A stretch of DNA of 44,936 nucleotides from Methanomicrobiales archaeon. Lineage in GTDB: Archaea > Halobacteriota > Methanomicrobia > Methanomicrobiales > Methanospirillaceae. The notes under the pieces were generated by a model. The model saw only the letters and a list, made by a program, of their open reading frames with translations. It was not told where the DNA came from and ran no database searches. This document shows positions 1,993 through 44,936 of this stretch, piece after piece (the first letter of the stretch is position 1; each line of letters starts with the position of its first letter). Position numbers and translations under genes: made by a program. The stretch is taken from assembly GCA_037137755.1 (NCBI GenBank), contig JBAXJR010000018.1, positions 1 to 44,936 of the forward strand, given 5' to 3'.

Positions 1993-4641
1993 TCATTCCC
2001 TTATGCCACCGGGCATGAGCGAATTGATGCGGCCCCTAAACTGGCGGTATACAACCCGTATTCCAAAACCGACTACCAGCACGGAGGCTGACACGATAAT
2101 AATTGTTACCCATTCATTGAACGTGAGTGGGACCGTGCCGAACACAAGGCTACCATATTGTACAATCAGGATTTGTGCGAGGACAATGAACCCCATTACC
2201 GCAAAAAACGTTGGGTTGCCTTTAAAAAAGGGCGGCATCTTCCCGTCGAGTGCCCGGCAGTTGATACCGTTCCAGACCGCAGCAATGACAAATGCAGCGA
2301 AAAACACTGTTGTAATTCCAGCGGGAGAAGTACCTCCCAGGAAGCCTGTTTTCATCTGGATCAATCCGCCGATGATAAAGAACGTACCGGTCACGATAAT
2401 TGAAAACCACATAAACGGGGTGATTACCGGTGTGTTTCTCCGGATGGGAAGACGGTTCATCAGTTCCCGGTGAGGGGCCTCCGAACAGAGTGCAAATGCG
2501 GCCAGCGTGTCCATGATCAGGTTAACCCAGAGGATCTGGATAATGGTAAACGGCTCCGGGTATCCAAGAAGCGGGGCAATAAATACCAGAACACATGCAC
2601 AGAAATTGAGGGTGAGCTGGAACAGCACAAAACGCTGGATATTCTCGTAGAGTGAGCGGCCCCACCACACGGCGCTGGTAATCGAGGCGAACGAGTCGTC
2701 AAGGAGAATTATATCACTCGCTTCCCTCGCTACCTCGGTCCCTGCGATTCCCATCGCGAGCCCGACATCCGCATTTTTCAGGGCTGGTGCATCGTTCGTC
2801 CCGTCACCGGTGACTGCCACAACATCCCCGTTCTTCTGGAGGGCCTGGACGAGAAGTAATTTGTCCATTGGCTCAGCTCGTGCCATCACATCAAGGTTCT
2901 GTGCAACTTCGACCTGTTGTTCAGGTGACAACGATCGGAATTCCTTCCCCTCAACGACAACCCCTCCCATGAGGATCCCAGAGTCCTCTGCAATGGCCTT
3001 TGCGGTCTCCCGGTTATCACCGGTCACCATACGGACCCTGATCCCTGCATCCATGCAGGTAGTTACCGATTCAGCAATATTGTCCCGCAGCGGGTCTCGT
3101 ATCCCGACATACCCGTCCCAGATAAGATTGGATTCGCTTTCGTCCCCGTTCACTATCGCCTTGTGGGCAAACGCGAGAGTCCGCATCGCCCTCGAAGCGA
3201 GATCACTGACACCGCTCATATCAGGTGGAATAGCACAGAGCGAAGAGAGAATCTCCGGGGCCCCTTTCACCAGGAGATACGGTTTTCCCGCGATATTCAC
3301 AACAGTTGACATCCTTTTTCTGTTCCCGTCAAACAGGTACTGTTTCCTGGTAGTGGTCTCTGCACGGATATGCATGTAATCGAGTGAATATTCACGGAGC
3401 CAGCGGAGAAGGGCCCCTTCGGTTGAGTTGCCGATGACAATTATCCGCCCGTCCCGCTCTTCCAGGTAGGCAGTGCCATTTACAGCGGCATTGAGGGTGA
3501 TCCATTCAGATGGCGAATGGGGGGTATTTCCCTGTTGTGCAGGCTCTCCGGCCGAGGCATGCACTACTTCCATCTGGTTTTTCGTCAGTGTCCCGGTCTT
3601 ATCCGTGCAGATTGTTGTCGCAGAGCCTATTGTCTCACATGCGATCAACTTCCTCACAAGGCAGTTGGCACGGGTCATCTTTCGCATCGCAAGTGATAGG
3701 GAGAGTGCGACGCTCATCGGGAGCCCTTCGGGAACTGCAACGACGATTATAGCGACAGCAATCATGAGGTAGTGCAGGACATGGTTCAGGGTATCAAGGT
3801 TCAGGCCAGTCAGTTCCCCGAGTATTATCCCGCGAATTGACAGGCTGACAAGGATTAGGATACCCATAGTATATCCGAATTTGCTGATGATCCCGGCAAG
3901 GGCTTCCAGTTTCTGTTCAAGGGGAGTTGCGGTTGAATGGTCGATACCAAGCGATGCCGCAATTACGCCCATCTGGGCCTTGTTACCTACCGCCCCGGCG
4001 ATCATCCGTCCTTTCCCGGCGGTAACAAACGTTCCTTTCAGGACATTATCTGCAGTCCCTTTTCCAACCGGTTCGCTTTCCCCGGTAAACGCGGACTCGT
4101 CGCTGGAGAGAGAGTCTGAGCTGATCAGCCAGCCGTCCGCGGGAACCGCATCACCCGCCTCGATGATGATGAGATCCCCGACAACAATATCACGGGAGGT
4201 TACCAGGGCCGGGTGACCATCCCGGATGACCTTGACACCGACGTCATCCCGGTGAGCATTTAATATATCGAACTCTTTACTGCTCCGGTATTCGTTGAAA
4301 AAGGAGATTCCGGTGGCGAGCAGGATAGCGATAATGATTCCAAGGGTATCGTAAATACTGATCCCCTGGATTATTGAGACTACCAGGGAGATAATAACTG
4401 CAATAATAAGGATTTTGATGATCGGGTCATCGTATTTCTTCAGGTACTGCAGCCATACCGGTTCCCGTACCGGGGGGGTCATGACGTTAGCGCCAAACCT
4501 TTCGCGGTAAACGGGGACTTCTGAGGACTCGAGACCGCCCTTCTCTTCAAGACGTGTCCGTTCTTCCGGGGATAGCAGGTCGGGTTCTTTCATTGTTTTC
4601 AAAGGACCATTTTGTCCGGGTAATTTTGGTGTTTTGCGCAT
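1993..4641 (-). CDS. Calcium-translocating P-type ATPase, PMCA (type IIB)-like
   Basis: TGES, VAVPEGLP, DKTGTLT (phospho-Asp), KGAPE, MVTGDN, VTGDGTNDAPALK, and M6 'QILWVNLIMDT' typical of PMCA-type pumps. Confidence 0.95.
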   Translation of the reverse strand: MRKTPKLPGQNGPLKTMKEPDLLSPEERTRLEEKGGLESSEVPVYRERFGANVMTPPVREPVWLQYLKKYDDPIIKILIIAVIISLVVSIIQGISIYDTLGIIIAILLATGISFFNEYRSSKEFDILNAHRDDVGVKVIRDGHPALVTSRDIVVGDLIIIEAGDAVPADGWLISSDSLSSDESAFTGESEPVGKGTADNVLKGTFVTAGKGRMIAGAVGNKAQMGVIAASLGIDHSTATPLEQKLEALAGIISKFGYTMGILILVSLSIRGIILGELTGLNLDTLNHVLHYLMIAVAIIVVAVPEGLPMSVALSLSLAMRKMTRANCLVRKLIACETIGSATTICTDKTGTLTKNQMEVVHASAGEPAQQGNTPHSPSEWITLNAAVNGTAYLEERDGRIIVIGNSTEGALLRWLREYSLDYMHIRAETTTRKQYLFDGNRKRMSTVVNIAGKPYLLVKGAPEILSSLCAIPPDMSGVSDLASRAMRTLAFAHKAIVNGDESESNLIWDGYVGIRDPLRDNIAESVTTCMDAGIRVRMVTGDNRETAKAIAEDSGILMGGVVVEGKEFRSLSPEQQVEVAQNLDVMARAEPMDKLLLVQALQKNGDVVAVTGDGTNDAPALKNADVGLAMGIAGTEVAREASDIILLDDSFASITSAVWWGRSLYENIQRFVLFQLTLNFCACVLVFIAPLLGYPEPFTIIQILWVNLIMDTLAAFALCSEAPHRELMNRLPIRRNTPVITPFMWFSIIVTGTFFIIGGLIQMKTGFLGGTSPAGITTVFFAAFVIAAVWNGINCRALDGKMPPFFKGNPTFFAVMGFIVLAQILIVQYGSLVFGTVPLTFNEWVTIIIVSASVLVVGFGIRVVYRQFRGRINSLMPGGIRE

Positions 4642-9642: not shown

Positions 9643-10593
9643 TTATTTTTTGGGGATATTTTTCCAGAACGACGATTTATAATCTGCTTTTGATTTCCCC
9701 TCTTTGTAATATTTTTCACCGGGTTCAGGGCCCTCCTTTGGTGCTTCTTCAATTTCTTCTTTCTCCATAGGAGGTATGGTTTTATGTTGAGCAAGACCCA
9801 TTTCCAGTTTTTCCAGCTTGACCGAGATCTCGTTGTTTTTCCTTTCCTGTTGTGACAGGGATGATTTTAATTCACCAATTCGTGCGAGGACCTGCTTTTC
9901 AAATTCCGAAAACTCCTCTTTGGGTTGCCCCTCTTCCTCTTTTTCGGGCGGTGTTAAGAGTTTATTGGATATGAACCCGGCAAATGTTGCAAAAATCCCG
10001 ACACCGGTCGTCATTACAAGGACACCCACCAGCCTCCCTGCACCGGTGACCGGGTACTGATCCCCGTACCCGACGGTGGTGATGGTCACATATGCCCACC
10101 ACAACGCATCACCGGCTGTAGTGATATTTGCACTGGGAGAACTGCTTTCTGCACGTAATACTAAAAATGAGCCCACTTCGAGGATGATGATTACAGAGAA
10201 AACAAGGATGTATAAAGCTGCTTCAGCCCGGTTATACGAGAGATAATGGGTAATTTCTTTGACCCCGTGTTCTTTTACAAGCCGGTAGGCCTTGAAAATA
10301 CGGAACAGCCTCAAAAATCTTAACTGGGGTGCACATGCAAGTAAATCAGCCCATCCATAGTCGCGGAAGAAATAATGGGTCTTTGATTTCGTGGTAGTTA
10401 ACCTATACACGAAATCCATGACGAAGATAATCGTCAGAAAAACGTTGATAATTTCTACGACGTTGACGGCTTCAGGGTTCACACCCGGAATATACACAAG
10501 AGCGAGGTTGATGACCGATAATATTGATACAAGGGCAATGAATATTTCATACCCAAACCCTTTTTCATTACTGAGTTCGTCTTCTGGAACCAT
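9643..10593 (-). CDS. 6-TM voltage-gated-type potassium channel
   Basis: S4-like 'LRFLRLFRIFK', pore 'ALWWAYVTITTVGYGDQYP' with canonical TVGYG filter, and a C-terminal coiled coil. Confidence 0.95.
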   Translation of the reverse strand: MVPEDELSNEKGFGYEIFIALVSILSVINLALVYIPGVNPEAVNVVEIINVFLTIIFVMDFVYRLTTTKSKTHYFFRDYGWADLLACAPQLRFLRLFRIFKAYRLVKEHGVKEITHYLSYNRAEAALYILVFSVIIILEVGSFLVLRAESSSPSANITTAGDALWWAYVTITTVGYGDQYPVTGAGRLVGVLVMTTGVGIFATFAGFISNKLLTPPEKEEEGQPKEEFSEFEKQVLARIGELKSSLSQQERKNNEISVKLEKLEMGLAQHKTIPPMEKEEIEEAPKEGPEPGEKYYKEGKSKADYKSSFWKNIPKK

Positions 10594-10720
10594 TGGAAAT
10601 CCCCTGAATTAATAATGTAATGGAATTACTGAAAAACTATTTGCAATATTTTTAGTTGTAGTATCCGGAGTGGGGTAAAAAAAGGATTTTTCTTCACTAA
10701 TAACATGTTATCATCAGGTA

Positions 10721-11284
10721 TTATTCATGTTTAACCCACAGATAAGCGGAGATTGCTATAATCATAATTGCCACTGCAGCACCGAATTCCAATATACCCA
10801 TTCCTTTGATGTGGGTCAGGGCCACCCCAAGGAAAAGGACGGCTAATGCAATAACAATAAGTCCGAGAAGCTTGGTTTTCAAATCGTCGAGGGTACGAAT
10901 TTCCACCCAGCCTGGGAGCGGTGCTTTGGCGATAAAGAGCTCATACAGCCCCATTGAAATCAGGTAAAAGACAGTCGCAACGAGAAATATATCAATGATT
11001 TCTATTGATGTTGCGAGAAATACCTGGACCGTCTCCATCGCCAGAGCAGTCTCCATCGTAAACCTGAAACCTGATATTGCGGCCCAAACCCCGGTAAGAC
11101 TCAGGAGGAACCCGTAAATGAAAAGGACCGCCGAAATGATCCCGGTGCCAATGATAGCCAGGCTGAACAGCCATTTGCTGCCTATTGCCATGGACTGGAT
11201 AAAGGAGTGAACACCACCTTTTTCCTGGCAGTTATTTTGTGATCCGTTGTTGCCGTCAGGGGGATTTATGTCATCGTTTTTCAT
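10721..11284 (-). CDS. yqhA: YqhA / UPF0114 family membrane protein
   Basis: 'IEIIDIFLVATVFYLISMGLYELFI...LPGWVEIRTLDDLKTKL' is the family signature. Confidence 0.88.
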   Translation of the reverse strand: MKNDDINPPDGNNGSQNNCQEKGGVHSFIQSMAIGSKWLFSLAIIGTGIISAVLFIYGFLLSLTGVWAAISGFRFTMETALAMETVQVFLATSIEIIDIFLVATVFYLISMGLYELFIAKAPLPGWVEIRTLDDLKTKLLGLIVIALAVLFLGVALTHIKGMGILEFGAAVAIMIIAISAYLWVKHE

Positions 11285-13527: not shown

Positions 13528-14931
13528 GTGAAAAACAAGACAACCGTCAAGCGCGATGCATATGGCATTACACGGTTTATTACGGAATATAAAACGTCTG
13601 AACAGCGGCGGCAGGAAGGAAAAGCCCTGAGGGAAGCAATCCCACGGGTTTCACACGGCGAATTCGACCCGCCGACTGACCGGCCGGACCCGGTTGAAGT
13701 AATAACAGAATCGAGTAAAGGAAGGCTCGAACACTTAATCCCCATCCGCTACGGACGCATGTCAAAAAATGTCTTCGCCTTCTTCCGGGGATCTGCTTCA
13801 TTGAATGCCTTAGATATTGCCGGGACACCGACGACCGACCTCAGGGTCCAGGCATGTGGGGATTGCCACCTCTCCAATTTTGGCCTGTTCGCGACGCCTG
13901 AGCGAAACCTGATTTTCGATATCAATGATTTCGATGAGACCCTCCCTGCACCATTTGAGTATGATATCAAGCGCCTGGGAGCTAGTTTTTGTATTGCAGG
14001 CCTCAATAATGGTTTTTCAGACAAAGAGTCCAGAAATATCACGAGGAGTTGTGTCCGGTCATATCGTGAGGCGATGCTGAAATTCTCCACGATGAATGTG
14101 CTTGATGTGTGGTATGCCCGGCTTGACATGGATTCGATCGTTGCATCGGCGCCGGATGCCGAAGCGAAGCGCAACCGCCAGAGAATTGCCCAGCAGGCCC
14201 GGGCAAGCGTAACAGAATATGTATTTCCAAAAATTACCAAGGTCCAAAATGGAAGGCGGCTCATTAAAGACGAACTCCCGGTGGTATACCATCCAACGGA
14301 TGAGGATGTCGACCCCAAGTTTTTCCTTGAAGCCCTGGAAAACTATCGCGAAACCCTGCCACATGAACGCCGGGTACTGTTTGACCGTTACCGGATTGAG
14401 GACCTCGCCTACAAAGTCGTAGGGGTTGGCAGCGTCGGTATGCGGTGTGGTGTTGTGCTCATGATGGCAGAAGAGAATGACCCCCTGCTTCTCCAGGTGA
14501 AAGAAGCACGTCCTTCCGTCCTTGAGTCCTATGCAGGAAAAAGTGAATTCAGCAACCCCGGGCAACGTGTCGTTGTTGGCCAGCGCCTGATGCAGTCGGC
14601 GAGTGATTTGATGCTCGGGTGGACGACGGGCAAAAAGGGACTCCATTTTTATATCCGCCAGCTCCGGGATATGAAATTCTCCCTGGATGTTACCACTATG
14701 AGTCCTCTCCAGCTATCCCGGTATGCCGAAGTATGTGGCTGGACCCTGGCCCGTGCTCATGCACGTTCAGGTGACGCCTCGATGATCTCGGGATACCTCG
14801 GGAAAACGGATGTGTTTGACAAGGCTATCGGGACGTTTGCGGGTCTCTATGCGTACCAGGCCGAACATGATTGTGAAAGGTTCCTCGAAGCAATACAATC
14901 GGGTGAAATCACTGCTGATTACGAGAAATAG
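13528..14931 (+). CDS. DUF2252 family protein (putative kinase-like fold)
   Basis: 'LIPIRYGRM..FAFFRGSA', 'CGDCHLSNFG', 'FDINDFDET', 'KVVGVGSVG', 'FYIRQLRDMK', 'LARAHARSGD'. GTG start with GAGGGTGA upstream. Confidence 0.93.
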   Translation: MKNKTTVKRDAYGITRFITEYKTSEQRRQEGKALREAIPRVSHGEFDPPTDRPDPVEVITESSKGRLEHLIPIRYGRMSKNVFAFFRGSASLNALDIAGTPTTDLRVQACGDCHLSNFGLFATPERNLIFDINDFDETLPAPFEYDIKRLGASFCIAGLNNGFSDKESRNITRSCVRSYREAMLKFSTMNVLDVWYARLDMDSIVASAPDAEAKRNRQRIAQQARASVTEYVFPKITKVQNGRRLIKDELPVVYHPTDEDVDPKFFLEALENYRETLPHERRVLFDRYRIEDLAYKVVGVGSVGMRCGVVLMMAEENDPLLLQVKEARPSVLESYAGKSEFSNPGQRVVVGQRLMQSASDLMLGWTTGKKGLHFYIRQLRDMKFSLDVTTMSPLQLSRYAEVCGWTLARAHARSGDASMISGYLGKTDVFDKAIGTFAGLYAYQAEHDCERFLEAIQSGEITADYEK

Positions 14932-15047
14932 ATTAGATCATACCTTTTTGTCATGAAAATTGCAAATCCAACAACGATGCGGGCGTAAAATAATTGGACA
15001 TTCATATTTTCATTGGTTCGGTGTGATGCCCAAGGGCTTCATGTCAG

Positions 15048-36403: not shown

Positions 36404-39400
36404 ATGTACTCTCTCCTCTATGTTGATGACGAACCGGGCCTTCTCGAAATCGGCAAATTGTTTCTGGAGGTGAACGGAGATTTTTCTGTTACAACTATTA
36501 ATTCGGCCTCTGCTGCGTTAGATCTCCTCAAGGAGGAAAATTTTGCTGCTATCATCTCCGATTACCAGATGCCGGAGATGAACGGGATCACGTTCCTCAA
36601 GAAGCTCAAAGCATCGGGGAATACAACACCGTTTATCATCTTCACCGGAAAGGGGCGTGAAGAGGTGGTCATTGAAGCACTCAACGAGGGTGCAGATTTT
36701 TATCTCCAGAAAGGCGGGGACCCGGTATCACAATTTGCCGAACTCGCACACAAGGTCCGATCAGCAATAAGCCATAAAAAAGCAGAGAAACTTGCAAAAG
36801 ATACAGAGAGGAGGCTCTATGATATTATTAATTTCCTGCCTGATGCGACATTTGCGATAGATACAATAGGAAAGGTGATTGCATGGAACCGGGCAATCGA
36901 GGAGATGACCGGGATTCCAGCCACAGAAATGCTCGGCAAGGGGGACTACGAATACGCCATTCCCTTTTACGGGGTGCGTCGCCCGATTCTTATCGATGTG
37001 GTATCTATTTCAGATGAAGAACTTTCCAGGGACTATTACGCAATCGTCAAAAAAGAGGGAGATATCCTCATCGCGGAGACGACACTTCCCCGACCTATGG
37101 GAAGATATTCAGTCCTGCTTGGAAAAGCCACCCTCCTGTATAATGATGAAGGGGAGGCTATCGGCGCCATTGAATCTATCAGGGATATTACAGAACAGAA
37201 GCGGGCCGAGGAAGAACTCAGGAAAGCCCGTGACGAATATGTCGATCTGCTTGAACACATGAATGATGTGTATTACCGGAGCGATACCGAGGGACGGCTT
37301 ATTCTTGCAAGTAAATCGTGGGTGAAAGACCTTGGGTACGATGACCTCTCCGAGTGTCTTGGTAAAAATATCGCCGATACATTCTATGCAAACCCTGCCG
37401 AACGTAAGCGATTTGTTGAAGAGGTAAACCGGAATGGTTCCGTGTCCGATTACGAGGTTATCCTGAAGAAAAAGGACGGGACGGCACTCCCTGTTGCGAC
37501 AAGCAGTTACCTCTATTTCGATGATTCCGGTAACGTGCTTGGGATTGAGGGTACGTGGCGTGATATCACCGAGCGAAAGCAGGCTGAAGAGACCATCCTG
37601 CGGATAAATGAGTCCTTATACCGGCAGACAAAATCTCTGTCAATACTGAGCCGGATAATTACTACCGTGAATAAGGCTGTCAACCGGCAACAACTTCTCG
37701 ATGAAATCCTGGACGAAACACTTACCCTGCTTGATTATGATGCCGGGGGTATCTACCTGGTTGATCATACTGCAGGGAGAGCAGAGATTGTTTGTTCAAA
37801 AAATATTTCCCCCGGTTTCATCAGTGAAATCGGAAATGTCTCCATTAATGTTCCTCCGTATGACTCGCTTTTTGTTAAAGGGGTACCCCTGTTTACCGAT
37901 AACTATGAACAAGTCTCCCCGCTACACTTCGGGATGACGGGGTATTACTCCCTGGCAAGTGTCCCCCTTTTCTCAAAAAATATGATTATCGGGGCCCTGA
38001 ACGTCGCAAGTAAACAGCGGCACATAATTTCCGAGGATGAACAGCAGACACTTATTTCGATCGGGCGGGAACTCGGAACTATTTTTGAGAGGATAAGCGC
38101 TGAGGAAGAATCGAAAAAAGCAGAAAAGGCGCTTGAAGAGAACGAATCCCGCCTCCGCAGCATTATCCGGGTTGCACCGGTTGGTATTGGTGTTGCCATC
38201 AACCGGGTTATCCAGTCGGTCAATGACCAGTTCTGCCAGATAACGGGGTACAGTGCTGACGAACTCATTGGTAAACCGGCACGGTTTCTCTACCCGGCAC
38301 AGGAGGACTACGACTATGTCGGCAAGGAGAAATACGGCCAAATCGCCTCAAAAGGGCATGGTTCTGTCGAGACCAGGTTTCAGAAGAAAGATGGGAAAAT
38401 TATTGATGTCCTCCTCTCCTCGGCACCCATCGATCCGTCCAACCTTTCCGTTGGTGTGATATTTACTGCACTTGACATCACCGAACGAAAGATTGCGGAG
38501 AAGAATCTCTGGTTTTCAGAGAGAAAGTTTGCTGCTGCGTTCGATGCAAGTCCTGATCCCATGGCTATCACAGATATCAAAACCGGGGCTCTTCTGGATA
38601 TTAACCATTCATTTGAAATATGGTCGGGGTATTCCCGGGAGGAGATTTCCGGTAAAACTACTATTGGCATGAATTTCTGGGTATATCCGGAAGAACGGGA
38701 CGCGGTTGTCAGTTTATTAAATAAAGAGGGGATAGTAACCAAAAAAGAGGTGGCCTTAAGGACAAAAACAGGAGAGGTCCGGAATATTTTGTTTTCGGCA
38801 ACAGTGTTCGGGATTGGGGATCATACCTACATGCTCTCCGTTTCAGAGGATATAACCGAACGCAAGCGGGTGGAGGAGGCCCTGCACCAGGCCCACCGGC
38901 GTCTCCGGAGTTTTATCGACGCCAATATCGTGGGTGTCATAATCGCCAGTCCTTCAGGGAAGGTAATCGATGCCAATGATTATTATCTGCGTCTGATCGG
39001 GTATACCCGCGAGGAGTTTGAGCAGGGAAGGGTTGACTGGCGGGCCGTCACACCCCCGGAATGGCTCCCTGCTGATGAACAGGCAATAGAAGAACTCCGC
39101 CAGCATGGCAGGTGTACGCCATACGAGAAGGAATATATACGCCGGGACGGGGCCCGTGTCCCGGTCTTCCTGTCCGACGCCATGGTGCCGGGTCCTGAAG
39201 AACAAATTGTAGCCTTTGCTCTCGACATCACCGAACGGAAGAAGGTGGAGGTTGCGCTGCGGGAAAGCGAGGAGAAATACCGCATCCTTGTCGAGAATGC
39301 AGGAGAAGTCCTGGTGGTTGCGCAGGGCCGGTACCTGAAATTCGCAAACCCAAGAACGGTCGAAGTCACCGGTTATGCCCGCGAAGAGCTCCTCTCACGC

Positions 39401-41401
39401 CCGTTCATTGAGTTCATCCACCCTGATGACCGCAGCATGGTTGCAGCCAACTACCAACGCAGGACCGGGGGGGAAGCAGCCCCGGACCTGTATTGTTTCC
39501 GGCTCGTGAGAAAAGACGGGGAGGTGCGGTGGATGGAGATCCGGGCAGTCCCCATCTCCTGGGAAGGAGCACCGGCAACCCTGAATTTCCTCATTGATAT
39601 CACGGAAAAAAGAATTGCAGAAAAATCCCTGGTAGTAAGCGAGGAGCAGTCCCGCACGGAAAAAGCCCTCCTCTGCTCACTGATTGATGCCCTCCCGTTT
39701 GACGTCTGGGCAAAGCATAGTGACGGCCGGTACATTTTGCAGAATGCCCAATCCATCCGGCTCTGGGGTGACTGCCTGAACAAGACAACTGCCAGCCTCG
39801 TGTACCCGCAGGATGTCCTCAACCACTGGCAGGAGAACTCCCGGAAAGCGATGGGTGGAGAAACCGTATCGGGCGAGTTTGTGTGGGAGACAGGGGAGAT
39901 ATGCAGGGTCTACCACGAGATCATAACCCCTGTTACGGTACAGGACGATATTATAGGGATCATTGGTGTCAACATTGATATCACCGGGCTAAAGCAGGTG
40001 GAGGAAGCACTACGGGAGAGCGATGCGCAAAAAAAGGCTATCCTGAATGGCATTACCACCAACATTGCGTTTGTTGACAACAATCTGAAGATCCTCTGGG
40101 CGAACAGGGTTGCCGCCGAATCTGTGGACAAACAGCCAGCCGAAATGATTGGCCACACCTGTCACGCCCTGTGGGCGGACCCGGAACGACCGTGTGAAAA
40201 CTGCCCTACATTACGGGCCTTTGAATCAAAAAAGCCGGAGCATACAATTATGTACACACCCGATGGCAGGGTCTGGAACGAGAGGGGTGAGCCGGTATTC
40301 GATGAAACGGGAAATTTGATCGGTGTGGTTGAAATCGCCCAGGACATCACTGATCGTACGCGGGCTGAGGAGGCATTGCGCGAAAGCGAAAAGAACCTCA
40401 GGGAAGCCCAGAAAATCGCACGGCTGGGCCAATGGGACCTTGACCTTGTTAACAATATACTGCACTGGTCAGAAGGGATTTTCGAGATGTTTGGAACCAA
40501 TCCCAGGGAATTCGGGGCGACATATGAAGCGTTCCTGGAGCTTATCCATCCCGATGACCGGGAGATGGTCAACCGGGCCTACGCCGAGTCTTTGAAAACC
40601 CGGCAACCATACGAGATCTCACATCGCCTGCTCATGAAAGAAGGGCGGGTCAAATGGGTGAACGAAATCGGTCATACGGATTATGACTCCGGGGGTAAGC
40701 CGCTACGCTCTGTTGGCATTGTGCAGGACATAAGCGTGATCAAACAGGCTGAAGAGGCGCTCCAGAAGGCTAACCGCAAACTTAACCTCCTCTCCGGCAT
40801 CACCCGGCACGACATCAACAACCAGCTCTTTGCATTGAATGGCTTTCTGGAGTTGCTACATAAAAAAACCCGGGACCAAGGACTTGAGGATTATTTCACC
40901 CGGATCACCAGGACCAGTTCCCTGATCTCAACGATGATCCAGTTCACCAGTGAATACGAGCAGATTGGTGTCCACGCCCCTGCCTGGCAGGATATTCGCG
41001 CACTCGTTGATACCGCGGAGAAAGAAGCCCCGCTGGGAAATATTATCGTGAATAATGACCTTCCCGCCGGAACAGAAGTGTTCGCCGACCCGCTCATCAC
41101 CAAGGTCTTTTACAACCTGATGGACAACGCAGTGAGATATGGTATGAAGATTACGACCATCAGGTTCTCTGTTGAAAAATCCGGTGACGGCCCTGTCATT
41201 GTCTGCGAGGATGACGGTGTGGGGGTCCCTGTAGAGGAGAAGGAAAAGATTTTTGAGCGGGGATTTGGAAAGAACACCGGCCTTGGACTATTTCTTTCCC
41301 GGGAGATCCTTACGATAACCGGGATCACAATTACAGAAACTGGCGAGCCTGGCAGGGGAGCACGGTTTGAGATTCAGGTCCCCAGGGGATTGTACCGGTA
41401 A
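36404..41401 (+). CDS. Hybrid sensor histidine kinase: REC - 2 PAS - GAF - 7 PAS - HisKA - HATPase
   Basis: REC 'LLYVDDEP...IISDYQMPEMNG'; GAF 'DAGGIYLVD...SLASVPL....IIGALNVAS'; nine PAS units; 'ITRHDINNQL', 'NLMDNAVRYG', 'EDDGVGVP', 'TGLGLFL'. Confidence 0.95.
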   Translation: MYSLLYVDDEPGLLEIGKLFLEVNGDFSVTTINSASAALDLLKEENFAAIISDYQMPEMNGITFLKKLKASGNTTPFIIFTGKGREEVVIEALNEGADFYLQKGGDPVSQFAELAHKVRSAISHKKAEKLAKDTERRLYDIINFLPDATFAIDTIGKVIAWNRAIEEMTGIPATEMLGKGDYEYAIPFYGVRRPILIDVVSISDEELSRDYYAIVKKEGDILIAETTLPRPMGRYSVLLGKATLLYNDEGEAIGAIESIRDITEQKRAEEELRKARDEYVDLLEHMNDVYYRSDTEGRLILASKSWVKDLGYDDLSECLGKNIADTFYANPAERKRFVEEVNRNGSVSDYEVILKKKDGTALPVATSSYLYFDDSGNVLGIEGTWRDITERKQAEETILRINESLYRQTKSLSILSRIITTVNKAVNRQQLLDEILDETLTLLDYDAGGIYLVDHTAGRAEIVCSKNISPGFISEIGNVSINVPPYDSLFVKGVPLFTDNYEQVSPLHFGMTGYYSLASVPLFSKNMIIGALNVASKQRHIISEDEQQTLISIGRELGTIFERISAEEESKKAEKALEENESRLRSIIRVAPVGIGVAINRVIQSVNDQFCQITGYSADELIGKPARFLYPAQEDYDYVGKEKYGQIASKGHGSVETRFQKKDGKIIDVLLSSAPIDPSNLSVGVIFTALDITERKIAEKNLWFSERKFAAAFDASPDPMAITDIKTGALLDINHSFEIWSGYSREEISGKTTIGMNFWVYPEERDAVVSLLNKEGIVTKKEVALRTKTGEVRNILFSATVFGIGDHTYMLSVSEDITERKRVEEALHQAHRRLRSFIDANIVGVIIASPSGKVIDANDYYLRLIGYTREEFEQGRVDWRAVTPPEWLPADEQAIEELRQHGRCTPYEKEYIRRDGARVPVFLSDAMVPGPEEQIVAFALDITERKKVEVALRESEEKYRILVENAGEVLVVAQGRYLKFANPRTVEVTGYAREELLSRPFIEFIHPDDRSMVAANYQRRTGGEAAPDLYCFRLVRKDGEVRWMEIRAVPISWEGAPATLNFLIDITEKRIAEKSLVVSEEQSRTEKALLCSLIDALPFDVWAKHSDGRYILQNAQSIRLWGDCLNKTTASLVYPQDVLNHWQENSRKAMGGETVSGEFVWETGEICRVYHEIITPVTVQDDIIGIIGVNIDITGLKQVEEALRESDAQKKAILNGITTNIAFVDNNLKILWANRVAAESVDKQPAEMIGHTCHALWADPERPCENCPTLRAFESKKPEHTIMYTPDGRVWNERGEPVFDETGNLIGVVEIAQDITDRTRAEEALRESEKNLREAQKIARLGQWDLDLVNNILHWSEGIFEMFGTNPREFGATYEAFLELIHPDDREMVNRAYAESLKTRQPYEISHRLLMKEGRVKWVNEIGHTDYDSGGKPLRSVGIVQDISVIKQAEEALQKANRKLNLLSGITRHDINNQLFALNGFLELLHKKTRDQGLEDYFTRITRTSSLISTMIQFTSEYEQIGVHAPAWQDIRALVDTAEKEAPLGNIIVNNDLPAGTEVFADPLITKVFYNLMDNAVRYGMKITTIRFSVEKSGDGPVIVCEDDGVGVPVEEKEKIFERGFGKNTGLGLFLSREILTITGITITETGEPGRGARFEIQVPRGLYR

Positions 41402-41485: not shown

Positions 41486-41806
41486 TTACAGTGACGACCC
41501 AATTCCCGCCCGTTCCACTGCTACCGCATCTGCAGCGGCCTTTGCAGCGAACTGCTTCATATATGATATAAATGATTCAGGGTTAGTTCGCATATCCTTT
41601 GCGAGGACATCCATGCATTGGGCCGCCTCTTCAGCCAGGGGAGTAAGACAGTTTAGGCAATATTCTGTTGTATGAAGGTTGATATGTTTACATTCCTGGC
41701 ATTGTCGTGCGGCCATCGGATGAATTTTCTTTGCTTCTCCCTCGTCGGTGATGCCGTAGACTTTCATTAATGCCCGGTCGGTATCTTCAACGGTGAGATG
41801 GGCGTA
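41486..41806 (-). pseudogene. Orphan 3' fragment of a paralogous tyrosine recombinase (catalytic Tyr through zinc-ribbon tail)
   Basis: Extending the 41486-41767 ORF upstream gives YAHLTVEDTDRALMKVYGITDE...MAARQCQECKHINLHTTEYCLNCLTPLAEEA, colinear with YAHLTGEDLDKAIMKLYNLTDE...MAPKQCPACATYNIHTNEFCAACLTPLSEDA of 41966-43249. Homology stops just before the Tyr. Confidence 0.88.
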
Positions 41807-41965
41807 GTCAAGCTTGCGCAGGATCTTCTTAAAAAAATAGGAGGGTCGATGCGAAGAGCATCGTACCCTGTATACGGATGCTGCGGACGGGAAGGCAAAC
41901 GCAAAGTGGGAATCCCCACATCCCCAATCCTGCTACTTTATCAGTCCAAGAATTGACTGACTTCT

Positions 41966-43249
41966 ATGGCTCCCAGACTTTCCACGGAACCCACGGCTAA
42001 CACTATAGAAAGCTTTTATGGATTAAAAGGTGACCGGCCCGGGGTATGTATTGAAAGAGGATTAGCAAAGAATTTATTGACCGAACGGGACGCGTCCCTC
42101 ATTAAGGCGTTTTTACTCGAATCAAAAAGCTCCGCAAACATCGGCCTCATCAGGAGCCTGAAAGTTGCCCGGACCCTCACCGGCTGGCGCAGGTTCATCG
42201 GTCCTTTCGACTCGCTTGACCCGGTCGGCGTGTATGAGGGTATCAGCAACCTGAAAGAAGGTAACAGCTACAACGGAAAACCGTTCGCGAAAAACACCCT
42301 GTATGATCACGTCAGGATCCTCAAGACCTTCCTTATCTGGATGATCGAAAACGAACTGGCCCCGAAACTCCTCGACCGGAAAGCTGAAGCGAAGATCCGT
42401 GCAATCCGGCCACCATCAAAAGACCTGATGACCAAGGTTGCCGGGGATCTCTTCAGCATCGAGGAAGTGGACCGTATCGTTGCCGCCTGCACGCGGTCCC
42501 GGGACAGGGCTATGATCTCCATGATATACGAAGGGGGCTTTCGTATCGGTGAGATCGGTCTGGTCACATGGGGTGATCTCGTATTCGACCCCAAGGGAGT
42601 CATTGTGAATACGGACCACAAGACCGGAAGGCCCAGGCGCATCAGGTTAATCGATTCAAAATCGCTTCTGGCCCAATGGTTCACCGATTACCCGATCCCG
42701 GTCAAACCCCATTACCCGGTTTTCTTGAACCTGCATGGTCATTCCCTGAAGCATCGGGGAGTATCGAAACTCATCAAAACACTTGCGAAACGTGCTGGGA
42801 TAACAAAAAGGGTTCATGCCCATATCTTCCGGCACTCCAGGATCACCCACCTGATCATCGCGGGACTGCCCGAGAGTATGATCAAGAAAATGATCTGGGG
42901 TAACATCACGACCAATATGTTCGCGACCTACGCCCACCTTACCGGTGAGGACCTGGACAAGGCCATCATGAAACTCTACAATCTGACCGACGAAACGGAA
43001 GTCAAGAAGATGAAGAGTATGGCCCCCAAACAGTGCCCGGCGTGTGCTACGTACAACATTCACACAAACGAGTTCTGCGCAGCCTGTTTGACCCCACTGA
43101 GTGAAGATGCAGTGATGTCAATGGACATGCTAAAAGACGATGTGATCAGCAACCCGAAGGCATTAGCGGCCTTCGTTCAACAAATCGCAGCCAAACAGGT
43201 TGCAATGACAATGGAAGCGGAGTGGAAGAAAGCCACTCCCGCCCAGTAA
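41966..43249 (+). CDS. Tyrosine recombinase/integrase with a C-terminal zinc ribbon
   Basis: Catalytic set: R (YEGGFRIGE), K (HKTG), HxxR (HIFRHSR) and Y (TYAHL). CPAC...CAAC tail. Confidence 0.95.
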   Translation: MAPRLSTEPTANTIESFYGLKGDRPGVCIERGLAKNLLTERDASLIKAFLLESKSSANIGLIRSLKVARTLTGWRRFIGPFDSLDPVGVYEGISNLKEGNSYNGKPFAKNTLYDHVRILKTFLIWMIENELAPKLLDRKAEAKIRAIRPPSKDLMTKVAGDLFSIEEVDRIVAACTRSRDRAMISMIYEGGFRIGEIGLVTWGDLVFDPKGVIVNTDHKTGRPRRIRLIDSKSLLAQWFTDYPIPVKPHYPVFLNLHGHSLKHRGVSKLIKTLAKRAGITKRVHAHIFRHSRITHLIIAGLPESMIKKMIWGNITTNMFATYAHLTGEDLDKAIMKLYNLTDETEVKKMKSMAPKQCPACATYNIHTNEFCAACLTPLSEDAVMSMDMLKDDVISNPKALAAFVQQIAAKQVAMTMEAEWKKATPAQ

Positions 43250-43251
43250 AT
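43017..43251 (+). repeat. 235-bp direct repeat, copy 1 (integrase 3' end)
   Basis: Hand alignment to 44554-44788: no gaps, 23 mismatches (~90% identity); the first 36 bp and an internal 56 bp block are identical. Confidence 0.95.
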
Positions 43252-43367
43252 TCTAATTTTTATTAACCTTTGAACCTTGACCATCATAATAATTTAAGAT
43301 AAATCATATCTCAGGAAAGATTTGTAACGGAGGGGTCCGCCATAGTGTTAACAAGGGGGATAGTCTC

Positions 43368-43862
43368 ATGAAATTTCCCAACGGAAATGCCAGGATCATT
43401 ATTATTGTCTGTGCAGTCATTGTCACGGGTATTCTATCTTATCTTGTACTATCAGGCTCTGTTTTTCAATCAGGAAATCAGATGGAGAATATAACACCAC
43501 CAATAAATACAACCCCTGTTGTCCCATTAAAGATCGATGCCAGCTTTGCCGTTGAGGAGGTTAACATAAGTGTCATCCATTTCATCAAAAGTAATCCTGC
43601 CACGTTTGAAGAAATGCAGCTGTTCCCCGAACTTGAGAGTTATATGCACGGAACGAACAACGACCCAACGGAATGGCATCACGGCGTGAGAACGGTTGGC
43701 TTGTTCGAAGGCAATATCAGTCAGTATGATACGCTTGTTAAAGAAATCTGCAAAGGAAAAACGATATATGAATGCTGTCGCGGCACTCTTATCGAATACC
43801 ATGATCAATATTACCTAATTGTCACTCAAGAGTACGGTTATTTGAAACGCAGTCCATTTTGA
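43368..43862 (+). CDS. Hypothetical membrane-anchored/secreted protein (cargo gene 1)
   Basis: AGGGGG upstream, N-terminal TM, T/P linker, small domain with 'ICKGKTIYECC'. Confidence 0.75.
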   Translation: MKFPNGNARIIIIVCAVIVTGILSYLVLSGSVFQSGNQMENITPPINTTPVVPLKIDASFAVEEVNISVIHFIKSNPATFEEMQLFPELESYMHGTNNDPTEWHHGVRTVGLFEGNISQYDTLVKEICKGKTIYECCRGTLIEYHDQYYLIVTQEYGYLKRSPF

Positions 43863-43929
43863 TTACCGTGCATACTGACCGTGCTGGGGGGGGAGACTGG
43901 GGCTACATCGAAGAATTCTGAAACCATGT

Positions 43930-44532
43930 ATGATGATAACCAAATTCTTTTTTTGTGACATGACGAAAACAAACGTGATGAAATACCCACTTGTAATGGC
44001 GTCCGTAATATTCTTCTGGATGCCACTCGTGTATGCATTTACATTTATATTCCCATACAGAGGCCCGTTTCTTTTCTTCGGAGTACTGGTAGTGGCATGT
44101 ACCATTTCAGCGGTAGGTGCATCGCTCATCCTGGTCGAGAGATGCATGGGATCGGCCCGCCGATTTCCCGTTGTCCTGTTCACCCTGGATCTTCTAGTCA
44201 TCCTCATATTCAGGGTGGTCGGTTTTCTCTATGAGGGATCGGTGATCGGCAGCATTTCTGAATCTGTTTGGGCAGCAGGACTCCTCCTCCTTGCGCCCTG
44301 TTCTCTGGTTGTGTTCAACTCCATCCCGGCAGACAGGACGGTCAGGTTCGTCACTATCGCCTTGACATTGGTTATATGCGTACCTGCCACCATTGCATTG
44401 ATTCTCGTTGTTCAAGGCTTTCCACATGCTTTCGACCCAGCATTAGGGCTGATGGCATTATACTGGATCGCAGGCATGCCTGTTATCGGCGCATGTTTCC
44501 TTGCATTCGCAACATATGCCAAAGGAGTTTGA
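43930..44532 (+). CDS. Hypothetical ~6-TM membrane protein (cargo gene 2)
   Basis: Hydrophobic ORF whose stop lies 21 nt before repeat copy 2. True start may be ATG 43978 (MKYPLV). Confidence 0.75.
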   Translation: MMITKFFFCDMTKTNVMKYPLVMASVIFFWMPLVYAFTFIFPYRGPFLFFGVLVVACTISAVGASLILVERCMGSARRFPVVLFTLDLLVILIFRVVGFLYEGSVIGSISESVWAAGLLLLAPCSLVVFNSIPADRTVRFVTIALTLVICVPATIALILVVQGFPHAFDPALGLMALYWIAGMPVIGACFLAFATYAKGV

Positions 44533-44553
44533 GATGAAAAGGAATGAGTTGTT

Positions 44554-44788
44554 GTATGGCCCCCAAACAGTGCCCGGCGTGTGCTACGTTCAACATTCAC
44601 ACAAAAGAGTTCAGCGCAGCCTGCTTGACTCCCCTCAGCGAAGACGCGGTTAGATCAATGGACCTGCTGAAAGACGATGTGATTGGCAACCCGAAGGCAC
44701 TGGCGGCCTTTGTTCAACAAATCGCAGCCAAACAGGTTGCAATGACAATGGAAGCGGAGTGGAAGAAGGCAACTCCCGCCCTGTAAAT
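44554..44788 (+). repeat. 235-bp direct repeat, copy 2: displaced integrase 3' end (zinc-ribbon tail, one Cys changed to Ser)
   Basis: Encodes MAPKQCPACATFNIHTKEFSAACLTPL...EAEWKKATPAL*; lacks all catalytic residues. Confidence 0.93.
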
Positions 44789-44885
44789 CTTTTTTGAGGT
44801 CCATACCTGGCTGGCCAATCCATGAGTAATACTCAATGAACCAACTATGTCCTAACAATTTATTATCTGTATGACTAAGGAGAGC

Positions 44886-44917
44886 CTGTCCAACCAGCTA
44901 TGATAATGGTTGGACAG
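44886..44917. repeat. Perfect 11-bp inverted repeat with a 10-bp spacer
   Basis: ctgtccaacca-gctatgataa-tggttggacag. Confidence 0.85.
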
Positions 44918-44936
44918 ACCAATAAAACGCCTAATA

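Follow-up and report, generated by a model that had tools for sequence, protein, structure and literature searches.

The window analysed here, a 44,936-nt stretch of DNA from a Methanomicrobiales archaeon (JBAXJR010000018.1, assembly GCA_037137755.1), carries near its right end a complete tyrosine recombinase gene, int1, that is followed by a second copy of its own 3' end. We think it probable that this locus arose by insertions of foreign DNA at the 3' end of int1 itself, with imported tails placed on the gene and the displaced ones left behind as orphans. The tail now carried by int1 was imported, some orphans are decaying, and the architecture is seen again in another lineage and another integrase subfamily. 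An earlier note on this DNA had described the locus as a candidate self-targeting, tail-swapping cassette system, an integron/shufflon hybrid that included an inverted copy of the tail. Its central idea, that the gene's own 3' end is the point of exchange, holds up, and more tail units exist, whereas the integron and shufflon framing and the role given to the inverted copy do not. The features that carry the argument are the following.

41966-43249, plus strand: int1, an open frame of 427 amino acids encoding a tyrosine recombinase, supported by the open reading frame (ORF), Pfam, an alignment and a structure model.

43017-43251, plus strand: tail A, which int1 currently carries in frame; the codons at its end (TPAQ) are of the type that tail B also has, not of the backbone type.

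43017-43047, plus strand: a 31-nt block shared without a mismatch by tails A, B and C, G041 and L061; a candidate crossover region.

43252-44553, plus strand: cargo 1, consisting of ORF164 and ORF200, defined by ORF calls, Pfam and homologue searches.

44554-44788, plus strand: tail B, a displaced orphan tail inside an 80-amino-acid open frame (44544-44786) that keeps its natural stop.

C59:596-873: tail C, a third near-identical tail (91% DNA identity) whose frame is still open.

Contig C18, one of the 106 in a metagenome-assembled genome (MAG) that is 90.6% complete, is the window from end to end, and the locus therefore reaches the contig end. For comparison we used G041, a genome of the same genus, together with the metagenome loci L049, L051, L050, L052, L059 and L061. 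Evidence close to the read level comes from short Logan contigs, the form in which all 22 listed runs are kept; stretches that these contigs leave uncovered carry no meaning.

The product of int1 is a tyrosine recombinase by its catalytic domain and its tyrosine nucleophile. Residues 166-326 match PF00589 (Phage_integrase; E 1.7e-21), and in an alignment of 50 int1 homologues R193, K219, H286, R289, H290, W311 and Y322 are invariant in all 50 sequences. By our reading these residues would fill the Arg/Lys/His/Arg/His-or-Trp and Tyr catalytic roles; the codon of Tyr322 lies at 42929-42931. Four zinc-ribbon cysteines, Cys357, Cys360, Cys371 and Cys374, are equally invariant in this alignment, and the double-zinc-ribbon Pfam matches on int1 fall below the family cut-offs. 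The AlphaFold model (mean pLDDT 85.8) has a classical recombinase body. Foldseek returned, each at probability 1.00, XerA, XerH, Tn1549 Int, IntI, lambda Int and Cre. Past the body come a linker of low confidence (residues ~338-355), then a small hairpin region resembling a zinc ribbon, and then a pair of long helices. We refer to residues ~335-427 as the tail.

Tail B begins 1.3 kb 3' of int1 and matches tail A in direct orientation at 212 of 235 bases (90.2%), which confirms the note's claim of a complete integrase accompanied by a direct, roughly 90% copy of its last 235 bp. The onset of homology is sharp, at GTATGGCCCCC, and it coincides exactly with the start of the 31-nt block; 5' of 43017 identity between the copies drops to 36 of 84 bases. 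In the genome contig collection the exact 31-mer occurred in only two stretches, L074 and L075. Between the two tails lie ORF164 (43368-43862), which has a hydrophobic stretch at its N-terminus, and ORF200 (43930-44532), which is mostly hydrophobic. At the curated cut-off no Pfam family matches either of them, and a search of 11 other genomes from the genus gave no homologue for either; each has homologues of ~25-53% identity in 7 of 100 family genomes.

At least one further tail beyond the window, a result that the note had named as support, is found on contig C59. There tail C is preceded by a lipoprotein-like ORF of 115 amino acids (ORF115) and followed by a 134-residue ORF (ORF134) and then by a 1009-residue protein; the latter matches no Pfam family, and from its motifs alone we infer a primase-helicase. 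G041 shows what the locus looks like without interruption, running from int1 through its tail into the backbone. Window positions 41877-43239 align with G041 at 91.4%, and C59:596-5816 aligns with the directly continuing sequence of G041 at 90.8-92.4%. Since G041 is collinear with the window and then with C59, this genome has, relative to G041, tail copies on either side of additional DNA within the int1 3' end; foreign DNA has thus joined the recombinase gene at its 3' end, much as the note had proposed. L049 and L051 are likewise uninterrupted, with int1 leading straight into the primase-helicase backbone. In G041, int1 carries four single-base indels and the large ORF is broken up, owing either to decay or to sequencing errors. 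The order in this genome would then be int1, tail A, cargo 1, tail B, a gap, tail C and backbone, with the adjacency of C18 and C59 deduced from G041.

The tails differ in descent. A backbone-type 3' end, comprising the last codons and the downstream sequence that leads into the backbone, is common to tail C, the L052 orphan and G041, whereas tails A and B have another ending and the first tail of L052 has a third. Synonymous divergence (dS) among tails A, B and C is 0.41-0.47 with dN/dS of ~0.1, compared with a dS of 0.18 between tail C and the G041 tail. From the dS pattern and the types of 3' end we conclude that tail C is the resident tail. Because dS of ~0.4 comes with little protein change, tails A and B were imported from integrase alleles under purifying selection and are not local duplications. 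Tail A is in frame on int1. The note's suggestion that each join swaps the enzyme's tail is also supported. Some orphan tails are decaying: tail B has a serine in place of the invariant zinc-binding Cys371, the orphan of L052 has suffered a frameshift through a 1-nt deletion, and the orphan at C99, described below, carries a frameshift and a stop.

A second lineage repeats this architecture with different cargo. It is represented by L050, L052 and L059, which come from three metagenome records and overlap at 99.5-100%. Along the locus an intact minus-strand int2 comes first, then int1 (91% amino acid identity), a tail, a minus-strand PQQ gene, an orphan tail, ORF134 and the backbone, and one 3604-nt contig of L052 carries everything from residue 68 of int1 through to ORF134. 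The PQQ gene encodes a 485-residue PQQ-type beta-propeller protein that is unrelated to the cargo in the window. Directly 5' of the orphan tail, GGGRCCACCGACTCC is present both in L052 and at tail C on C59, and upstream of it the two sequences differ. L052 and C59 thus share the distal junction and differ in cargo, which is the kind of orthologous locus, with other cargo at the same breakpoint, that the note had named as support. Neither cargo 1 nor the L052 cargo contains a recombinase.

L061 (G077:C278) presents another variant. Its orphan tail (2760-3002) starts within the catalytic Tyr322 codon, behind two paralogous secreted-protein genes, one of which has PEGA domains. This tail is cut at about residue 403 and joined (2988-3937) to an inverted piece of the element's right end, C59:5684-4736, a rearrangement with one breakpoint inside a tail. 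The left junction of L061 appears as a loose end in run X7, and its variant letters are found in X1, X2 and X7.

These observations can be drawn into a single scheme. The locus would be the integrase end of an integrated plasmid-like element made up of int1, the 134-residue ORF and the presumed primase-helicase of 1009 residues. DNA segments bearing an integrase tail of their own would have recombined in register with int1, their tail with the one at its 3' end. Such an insertion would be of the Campbell type, either of a circle or of a related element, with the circularity of the incoming DNA presumed; a single crossover between the tail on an incoming circle and the int1 tail would yield the architecture. 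The incoming tail would come to lie in frame on int1, leaving the enzyme whole with its zinc-ribbon tail exchanged. Its cargo, genes for secreted or membrane proteins, would land behind the stop codon, and the former tail would be pushed downstream as an orphan and would then decay.

As the process behind these exchanges we tentatively prefer host homologous recombination between the ~90%-identical tails over integrase catalysis, and it fits the data at least as well. We lean this way because int1 is itself a mosaic of alleles (94-98% like L049 over the first 650 nt, 94-97% like G041 over nt 900-1125), because invariant runs of 55 and 31 nt recur in all three tails of this genome (P ~0.0008 for the longest), as gene conversion would make, and because the orphans do not begin at one common position. 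That the integrase itself acts on a site within int1 ranks below this, and we regard it as doubtful.

We next consider how widespread the arrangement is. With the tail as query, 62 of 101 family genomes gave a match, mostly within frames of ~400-450 amino acids. Ten loci with short frames were fetched; they comprise seven C-terminal fragments, two frameshifted full genes and one gene cut by a contig end. The seven fragments start at residues 208, 275, 280, 295, 308, 319 and 322, and their fetched flanks hold no full-length copy. In the int1 subfamily, four orphan 5' ends all fall within residues 322-351, or 90 nt of a 1284-nt gene. A second subfamily is represented at G000:C99, where a 405-residue integrase, 45% identical to int1, is followed after 160 nt by a degraded orphan tail. 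That orphan is 50-64% identical to the tail of its own integrase (~70% in DNA) and begins near the Tyr motif, at about residue 301. No orphan N-terminal fragments were found among 12 metagenome loci, which came from one scan in which five of the six search peptides were drawn from the N-terminal part of int1. A set of 5.8 billion proteins contained no stand-alone tail protein family: it returned eight short matches, and those covering most of the tail were 86-99% identical. IMG/VR yielded no relative, and only three to four units are known in total, with no evidence of a wide cassette pool.

Several of our results count against insertion at the int1 3' end as we have described it. C18 and C59 both end in the gap between them and no overlap of their ends was found; they could derive from different strains of the MAG population. 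Where ORF164 and ORF200 have homologues in other genera, none of the 10 fetched loci has an integrase within ~1.5 kb. When 45 full-length integrases, most with 1.5-kb flanks, were searched against themselves, a direct orphan tail nearby appeared at just two places, G000:C99 and the window locus, which makes the process rare or confined to certain lineages. The orphan 5' ends do not fall at one position but at residues 322 (L061), 333 (tail C) and 351 (tail B). The short Logan contigs contain neither a free circle nor a donor unit of tail plus cargo. Finally, the ~70% DNA identity of the C99 pair is low for homologous recombination unless that orphan is old.

Two other histories could account for much of the same data. 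The locus might be a platform on which the integrase recognises its own 3' end, at or near 43017-43047, and inserts and excises circular cassettes of tail plus cargo. Every orphan retains the entire tail from the 31-nt block to the natural stop, with tail B starting exactly at the block, the four orphan ends lying within 90 nt of one another, and the orphan of the C99 subfamily starting near residue 301 of its own integrase. Differences private to tail A occur only after 43052, and 6 of 55 bases differ from G041 5' of tail C as against 11 of 231 after the block; these contrasts in identity rest on few sites, and their fit to a crossover at the block is weak. The C99 pair seems too diverged for easy homologous recombination, and archaeal integrases with an attachment (att) site inside their own gene are known (PMC8371274). 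The block has no clear dyad symmetry (judged by eye only), and it is no conservation outlier once G041 or L052_A is added (P 0.11-0.18). The junction sequences 5' of tail B bear no relation to those of tail C, the units have no cassette-end motif that all of them share, and the Logan contigs contain no circular junction within a tail. The paralogue on C20 of the same genome, moreover, sits directly beside a tRNA-Arg gene in the ordinary arrangement. We therefore hold such a platform to be possible but on the doubtful side. A more specific version, an archaeal platform for gene capture in which the integrase would dock non-autonomous circles of tail plus cargo at a site in the part of its own gene coding for the linker and zinc ribbon, so that each capture exchanged the C-terminal module, seems quite unlikely.

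Alternatively, the tails might be ordinary debris, left by chance after related elements integrated in tandem or next to one another and deletions removed most of the second element along with the 5' part of its integrase gene. Tandem integrase-bearing elements do exist in the family (G054, 12.7 kb, 99.98%), C-terminal fragments with varied starts (residues 208-322) and no full-length copy in the fetched flanks occur in other genomes, and the window itself holds an inverted remnant of this kind. However, tails A and B, like the first tail of L052, are followed directly by cargo and not by backbone, and they leave the backbone type just before the stop. Two lineages have the same distal junction with different cargo, the four orphan starts cluster within 90 nt, and no N-terminal orphans were found; debris would call for a number of separate deletions, each ending within one short stretch of the gene. 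We consider this history unlikely. It is very improbable that the repeats result from misjoining of the tails of co-occurring strains during metagenome assembly. The genome is a MAG, several related integrase alleles occur under the same record prefix (L048, L051, L057), and contigs do break at this locus. Yet L048, a metagenome copy of the window's own contig that extends 210 nt farther right and then stops, reproduces the window at 100% over 3937 bases. Logan contigs of several runs span both tail-cargo junctions without differences (a 747-nt piece, L048 11872-12618, is found in X1, X2 and X7), and the L052 architecture is present on contigs from three metagenome records. Insertion of foreign DNA with imported tails at the int1 3' end remains the reading we favour.

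The inverted copy of the tail has a different origin. The note had taken it for a third version of the int1 tail; it is instead debris of a separate integrase gene, int2, and has no part in the insertion process. Two features make up this remnant.

41486-41767, minus strand: orphan int2 tail, an open frame of 93 amino acids from the equivalent of Met335 to a natural stop.

41768-41876, minus strand: degraded 5' part of int2, with integrase-like residues near the Tyr motif (DYAHL) and then stops; the bulk of the gene is deleted.

In protein, 48.8% of 86 aligned residues agree between the inverted copy and the int1 tail (tblastn E 3.5e-26); in DNA the copy matches int1 at 183 of 323 bases (56.7%), an identity at which our repeat listing missed it. 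By our count from the alignment, about two thirds of the 31 bases of the candidate core match. CTACGCCCA does not mark a sharp edge, for integrase-like residues go on upstream in a frame broken by stops; the inverted copy is therefore a degraded gene remnant and not a clean-edged unit. Both orphans in the window do keep an open frame to a natural stop, as the note had stated, but only the direct copy has a clean edge. An intact counterpart exists in L050, where a complete int2 (PF00589, 55% identical to int1) is transcribed divergently 139 bp from int1, and the inverted tail is 70.9% identical to its tail over 285 bases. In the window the inverted tail occupies the site expected for the int2 3' end, adjoining a host histidine-kinase gene, and the 5' two thirds of int2 are deleted; L049 keeps part of the same remnant, smaller still.

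Integration that replaces the 3' end of its target is familiar from elements in tRNA genes and from e14 and phage 21, which reside in icd of E. coli. Our locus shares these features of that process: the insert lies between direct copies of the target's 3' end that are not identical, the incoming copy keeps the ORF open, the displaced end is a pseudogene, and the repeats are of different descent, one incoming and one resident, as opposed to a local duplication. Unlike insertion into host genes, the target here is the integrase gene of another mobile element, and the units seen in full (1.5 kb) lack an integrase of their own and are stacked. Stacking recalls accretion, as in the cis-mobilizable element (CIME) that lies with the integrative and conjugative elements (ICEs) ICESt1/ICESt3 at the 3' end of fda, where non-autonomous segments bounded by gene 3'-end repeats likewise accumulate beside an element that encodes a recombinase. 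Here, in contrast, the repeated end is that of the recombinase gene itself, short att-type repeats are undefined, and mobility is putative. On our probable reading the locus is a variant of 3'-end-replacing insertion and accretion in which the integrase gene is itself the target, an unusual twist on known insertion logic.

Other systems are more distant. In the suicidal integrases of the SSV (Sulfolobus spindle-shaped virus) type, as in int1, the recombination point lies inside an archaeal integrase gene and gene fragments are left in genomes (the parts of PMC8371274 and PMC7253208 available to us). [quoted passage not shown] By contrast, int1 has the PF00589 domain and no PF16795 among Pfam matches to E 0.1, and it is not split into Int(N) and Int(C) around the element but is contiguous with the backbone in G041, L049 and L051. 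The orphans here lack a catalytic domain, whereas the Int(C) of suicidal integrases carries it. Domain and architecture together rule out split integration of the SSV type.

Integrons likewise line up small cargo units, each with one or two genes, next to the gene for a tyrosine recombinase, and IntI resembles int1 in fold (2a3v is among the Foldseek matches), as would any tyrosine recombinase. Here insertion occurs inside the coding 3' end and not at an attI site upstream of or outside intI, and the units are bounded by integrase-tail copies with no attC-like imperfect palindromes at their ends. Between 39000 and 44936 the listing of inverted repeats contains only three weak pairs (22-30 nt long, 70-73% complementary, 1.6-3.5 kb apart). 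Integron cassettes are promoterless and share one orientation, whereas the PQQ-propeller gene lies on the opposite strand and a promoter-like motif stands inside the array. The locus is thus not an integron, either by its sites or by its cassettes. Shufflons (Rci with pilV) offer alternative C-terminal coding segments next to a tyrosine recombinase; in our locus no segment is invertible, and the sole inverted tail belongs to another gene and is only 57% identical in DNA. No strand-changing joint is among those listed for contigs of four runs, and such contigs can conceal rare forms. On these grounds we rejected the shufflon as well. We found no description of insertion into an integrase gene with this layout in a literature search that left subscription journals and supplements outside.

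If our explanation is correct, a mobile element's own integrase gene would serve as a landing pad for more DNA without being inactivated, and the capture of cargo would be coupled to a modular change of the recombinase, which gains a new zinc-ribbon tail. This would provide archaeal elements with a route to acquire surface-protein genes and would be a source of chimeric integrases outside the 'suicidal' family of hyperthermophiles. The coding stretch from Tyr322 to Cys360 would then be a testable substrate for an integrase acting on its own gene. Should the process prove to be merely homologous recombination and decay, the locus would still be a clean example of nested accretion in a little-studied methanogen mobilome.

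Three further features of the window lie on either side of the units described above.

41877-41965, plus strand: conserved stretch 5' of int1, where the homology of five lineages starts at ATGCTGCGGACGG.

44789-44881, plus strand: segment of 93 nt 3' of tail B, which holds a 17-nt promoter-like motif at 44850-44866.

44882-44936, plus strand: start of the next segment, with a perfect 10-bp inverted repeat (12-nt loop) at 44886-44917.

Upstream, these 89 nt are all that the locus has in common with the relatives 5' of int1; beyond them lie the int2 debris and the kinase gene. The latter (36404-41401) encodes a multi-PAS histidine kinase of 1665 amino acids with internal 54-nt repeats at the PAS-domain borders, and it looks like a host gene bordering the element. 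ARAGORN found no tRNA gene in the window, and none adjoins the integrase loci on C59, C99, C52, C33, C47 and C63. The left and right boundary zones have no 10-mers in common in G000 or in G041, where we looked for att repeats at the outer ends, and L051 has no convincing flanking direct repeat. The genome carries 12 matches to int1, tail C among them. Among its integrases, a paralogue of 39% identity on C20 (L004) directly adjoins tRNA-Arg (2772-2845, minus strand), an ordinary layout for integrative elements.

Downstream of tail B, one contig of run X1 joins position 44881 directly to a tail whose first base corresponds to 42962, which is also where homology to tail C sets in. The 93-nt segment thus abuts a tail in this contig, and a further allele therefore exists. 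By our reading of its sequence, GGAG and a 5-nt spacer stand before Met335 in the X1 allele, behind the promoter-like motif; under the docking reading, which we consider quite unlikely, a displaced tail may sometimes be expressed alone. The same 17-nt AT-rich, TATA-box-like motif is found in identical form at C59:8912-8928 and C59:10744-10760, both on the minus strand, where it sits ~38-55 nt before the start of two secreted-protein genes. The inverted repeat lies directly 3' of the 44881/44882 junction, where the summed contig depth goes up, and has no second occurrence in the genome or the fetched loci.

Contig C59 opens with ~55 nt that it shares only with the starts of two other contigs (C59:1-55, C5:1-54, C3:5-55). 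This is probably a common node of the assembly graph, so that C59 would start at a repeat. Behind the backbone, C59:5844-11832 holds a run of paralogous secreted proteins with a KTIPAVKY motif and, on the opposite strand, a 114-residue paralogue of ORF115 (51% identical). Inside the backbone of the 86% sister element L051, a 197-nt unit is repeated three times in tandem at 10249-10839, with the later copies 80% and 62% identical to the first. In the complete genome of another genus, an integrase-bearing stretch of 12.7 kb recurs 15 kb downstream at 99.98% identity (L088 and L089, G054:C1:1972000-2011800).

Divergent pairs of related tyrosine recombinases, 140-380 bp apart, occur in at least three subfamilies. 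Besides L050 (119-1345, minus; 1484-2758, plus), they are found at G000:C52 (13006-14151, minus; 14318-14977, plus) and L090 (G077:C286; 1053-1943, minus; 2325-3539, plus), and window positions 41486-41876 are the remnant of one. Such pairs may act as a two-recombinase module.

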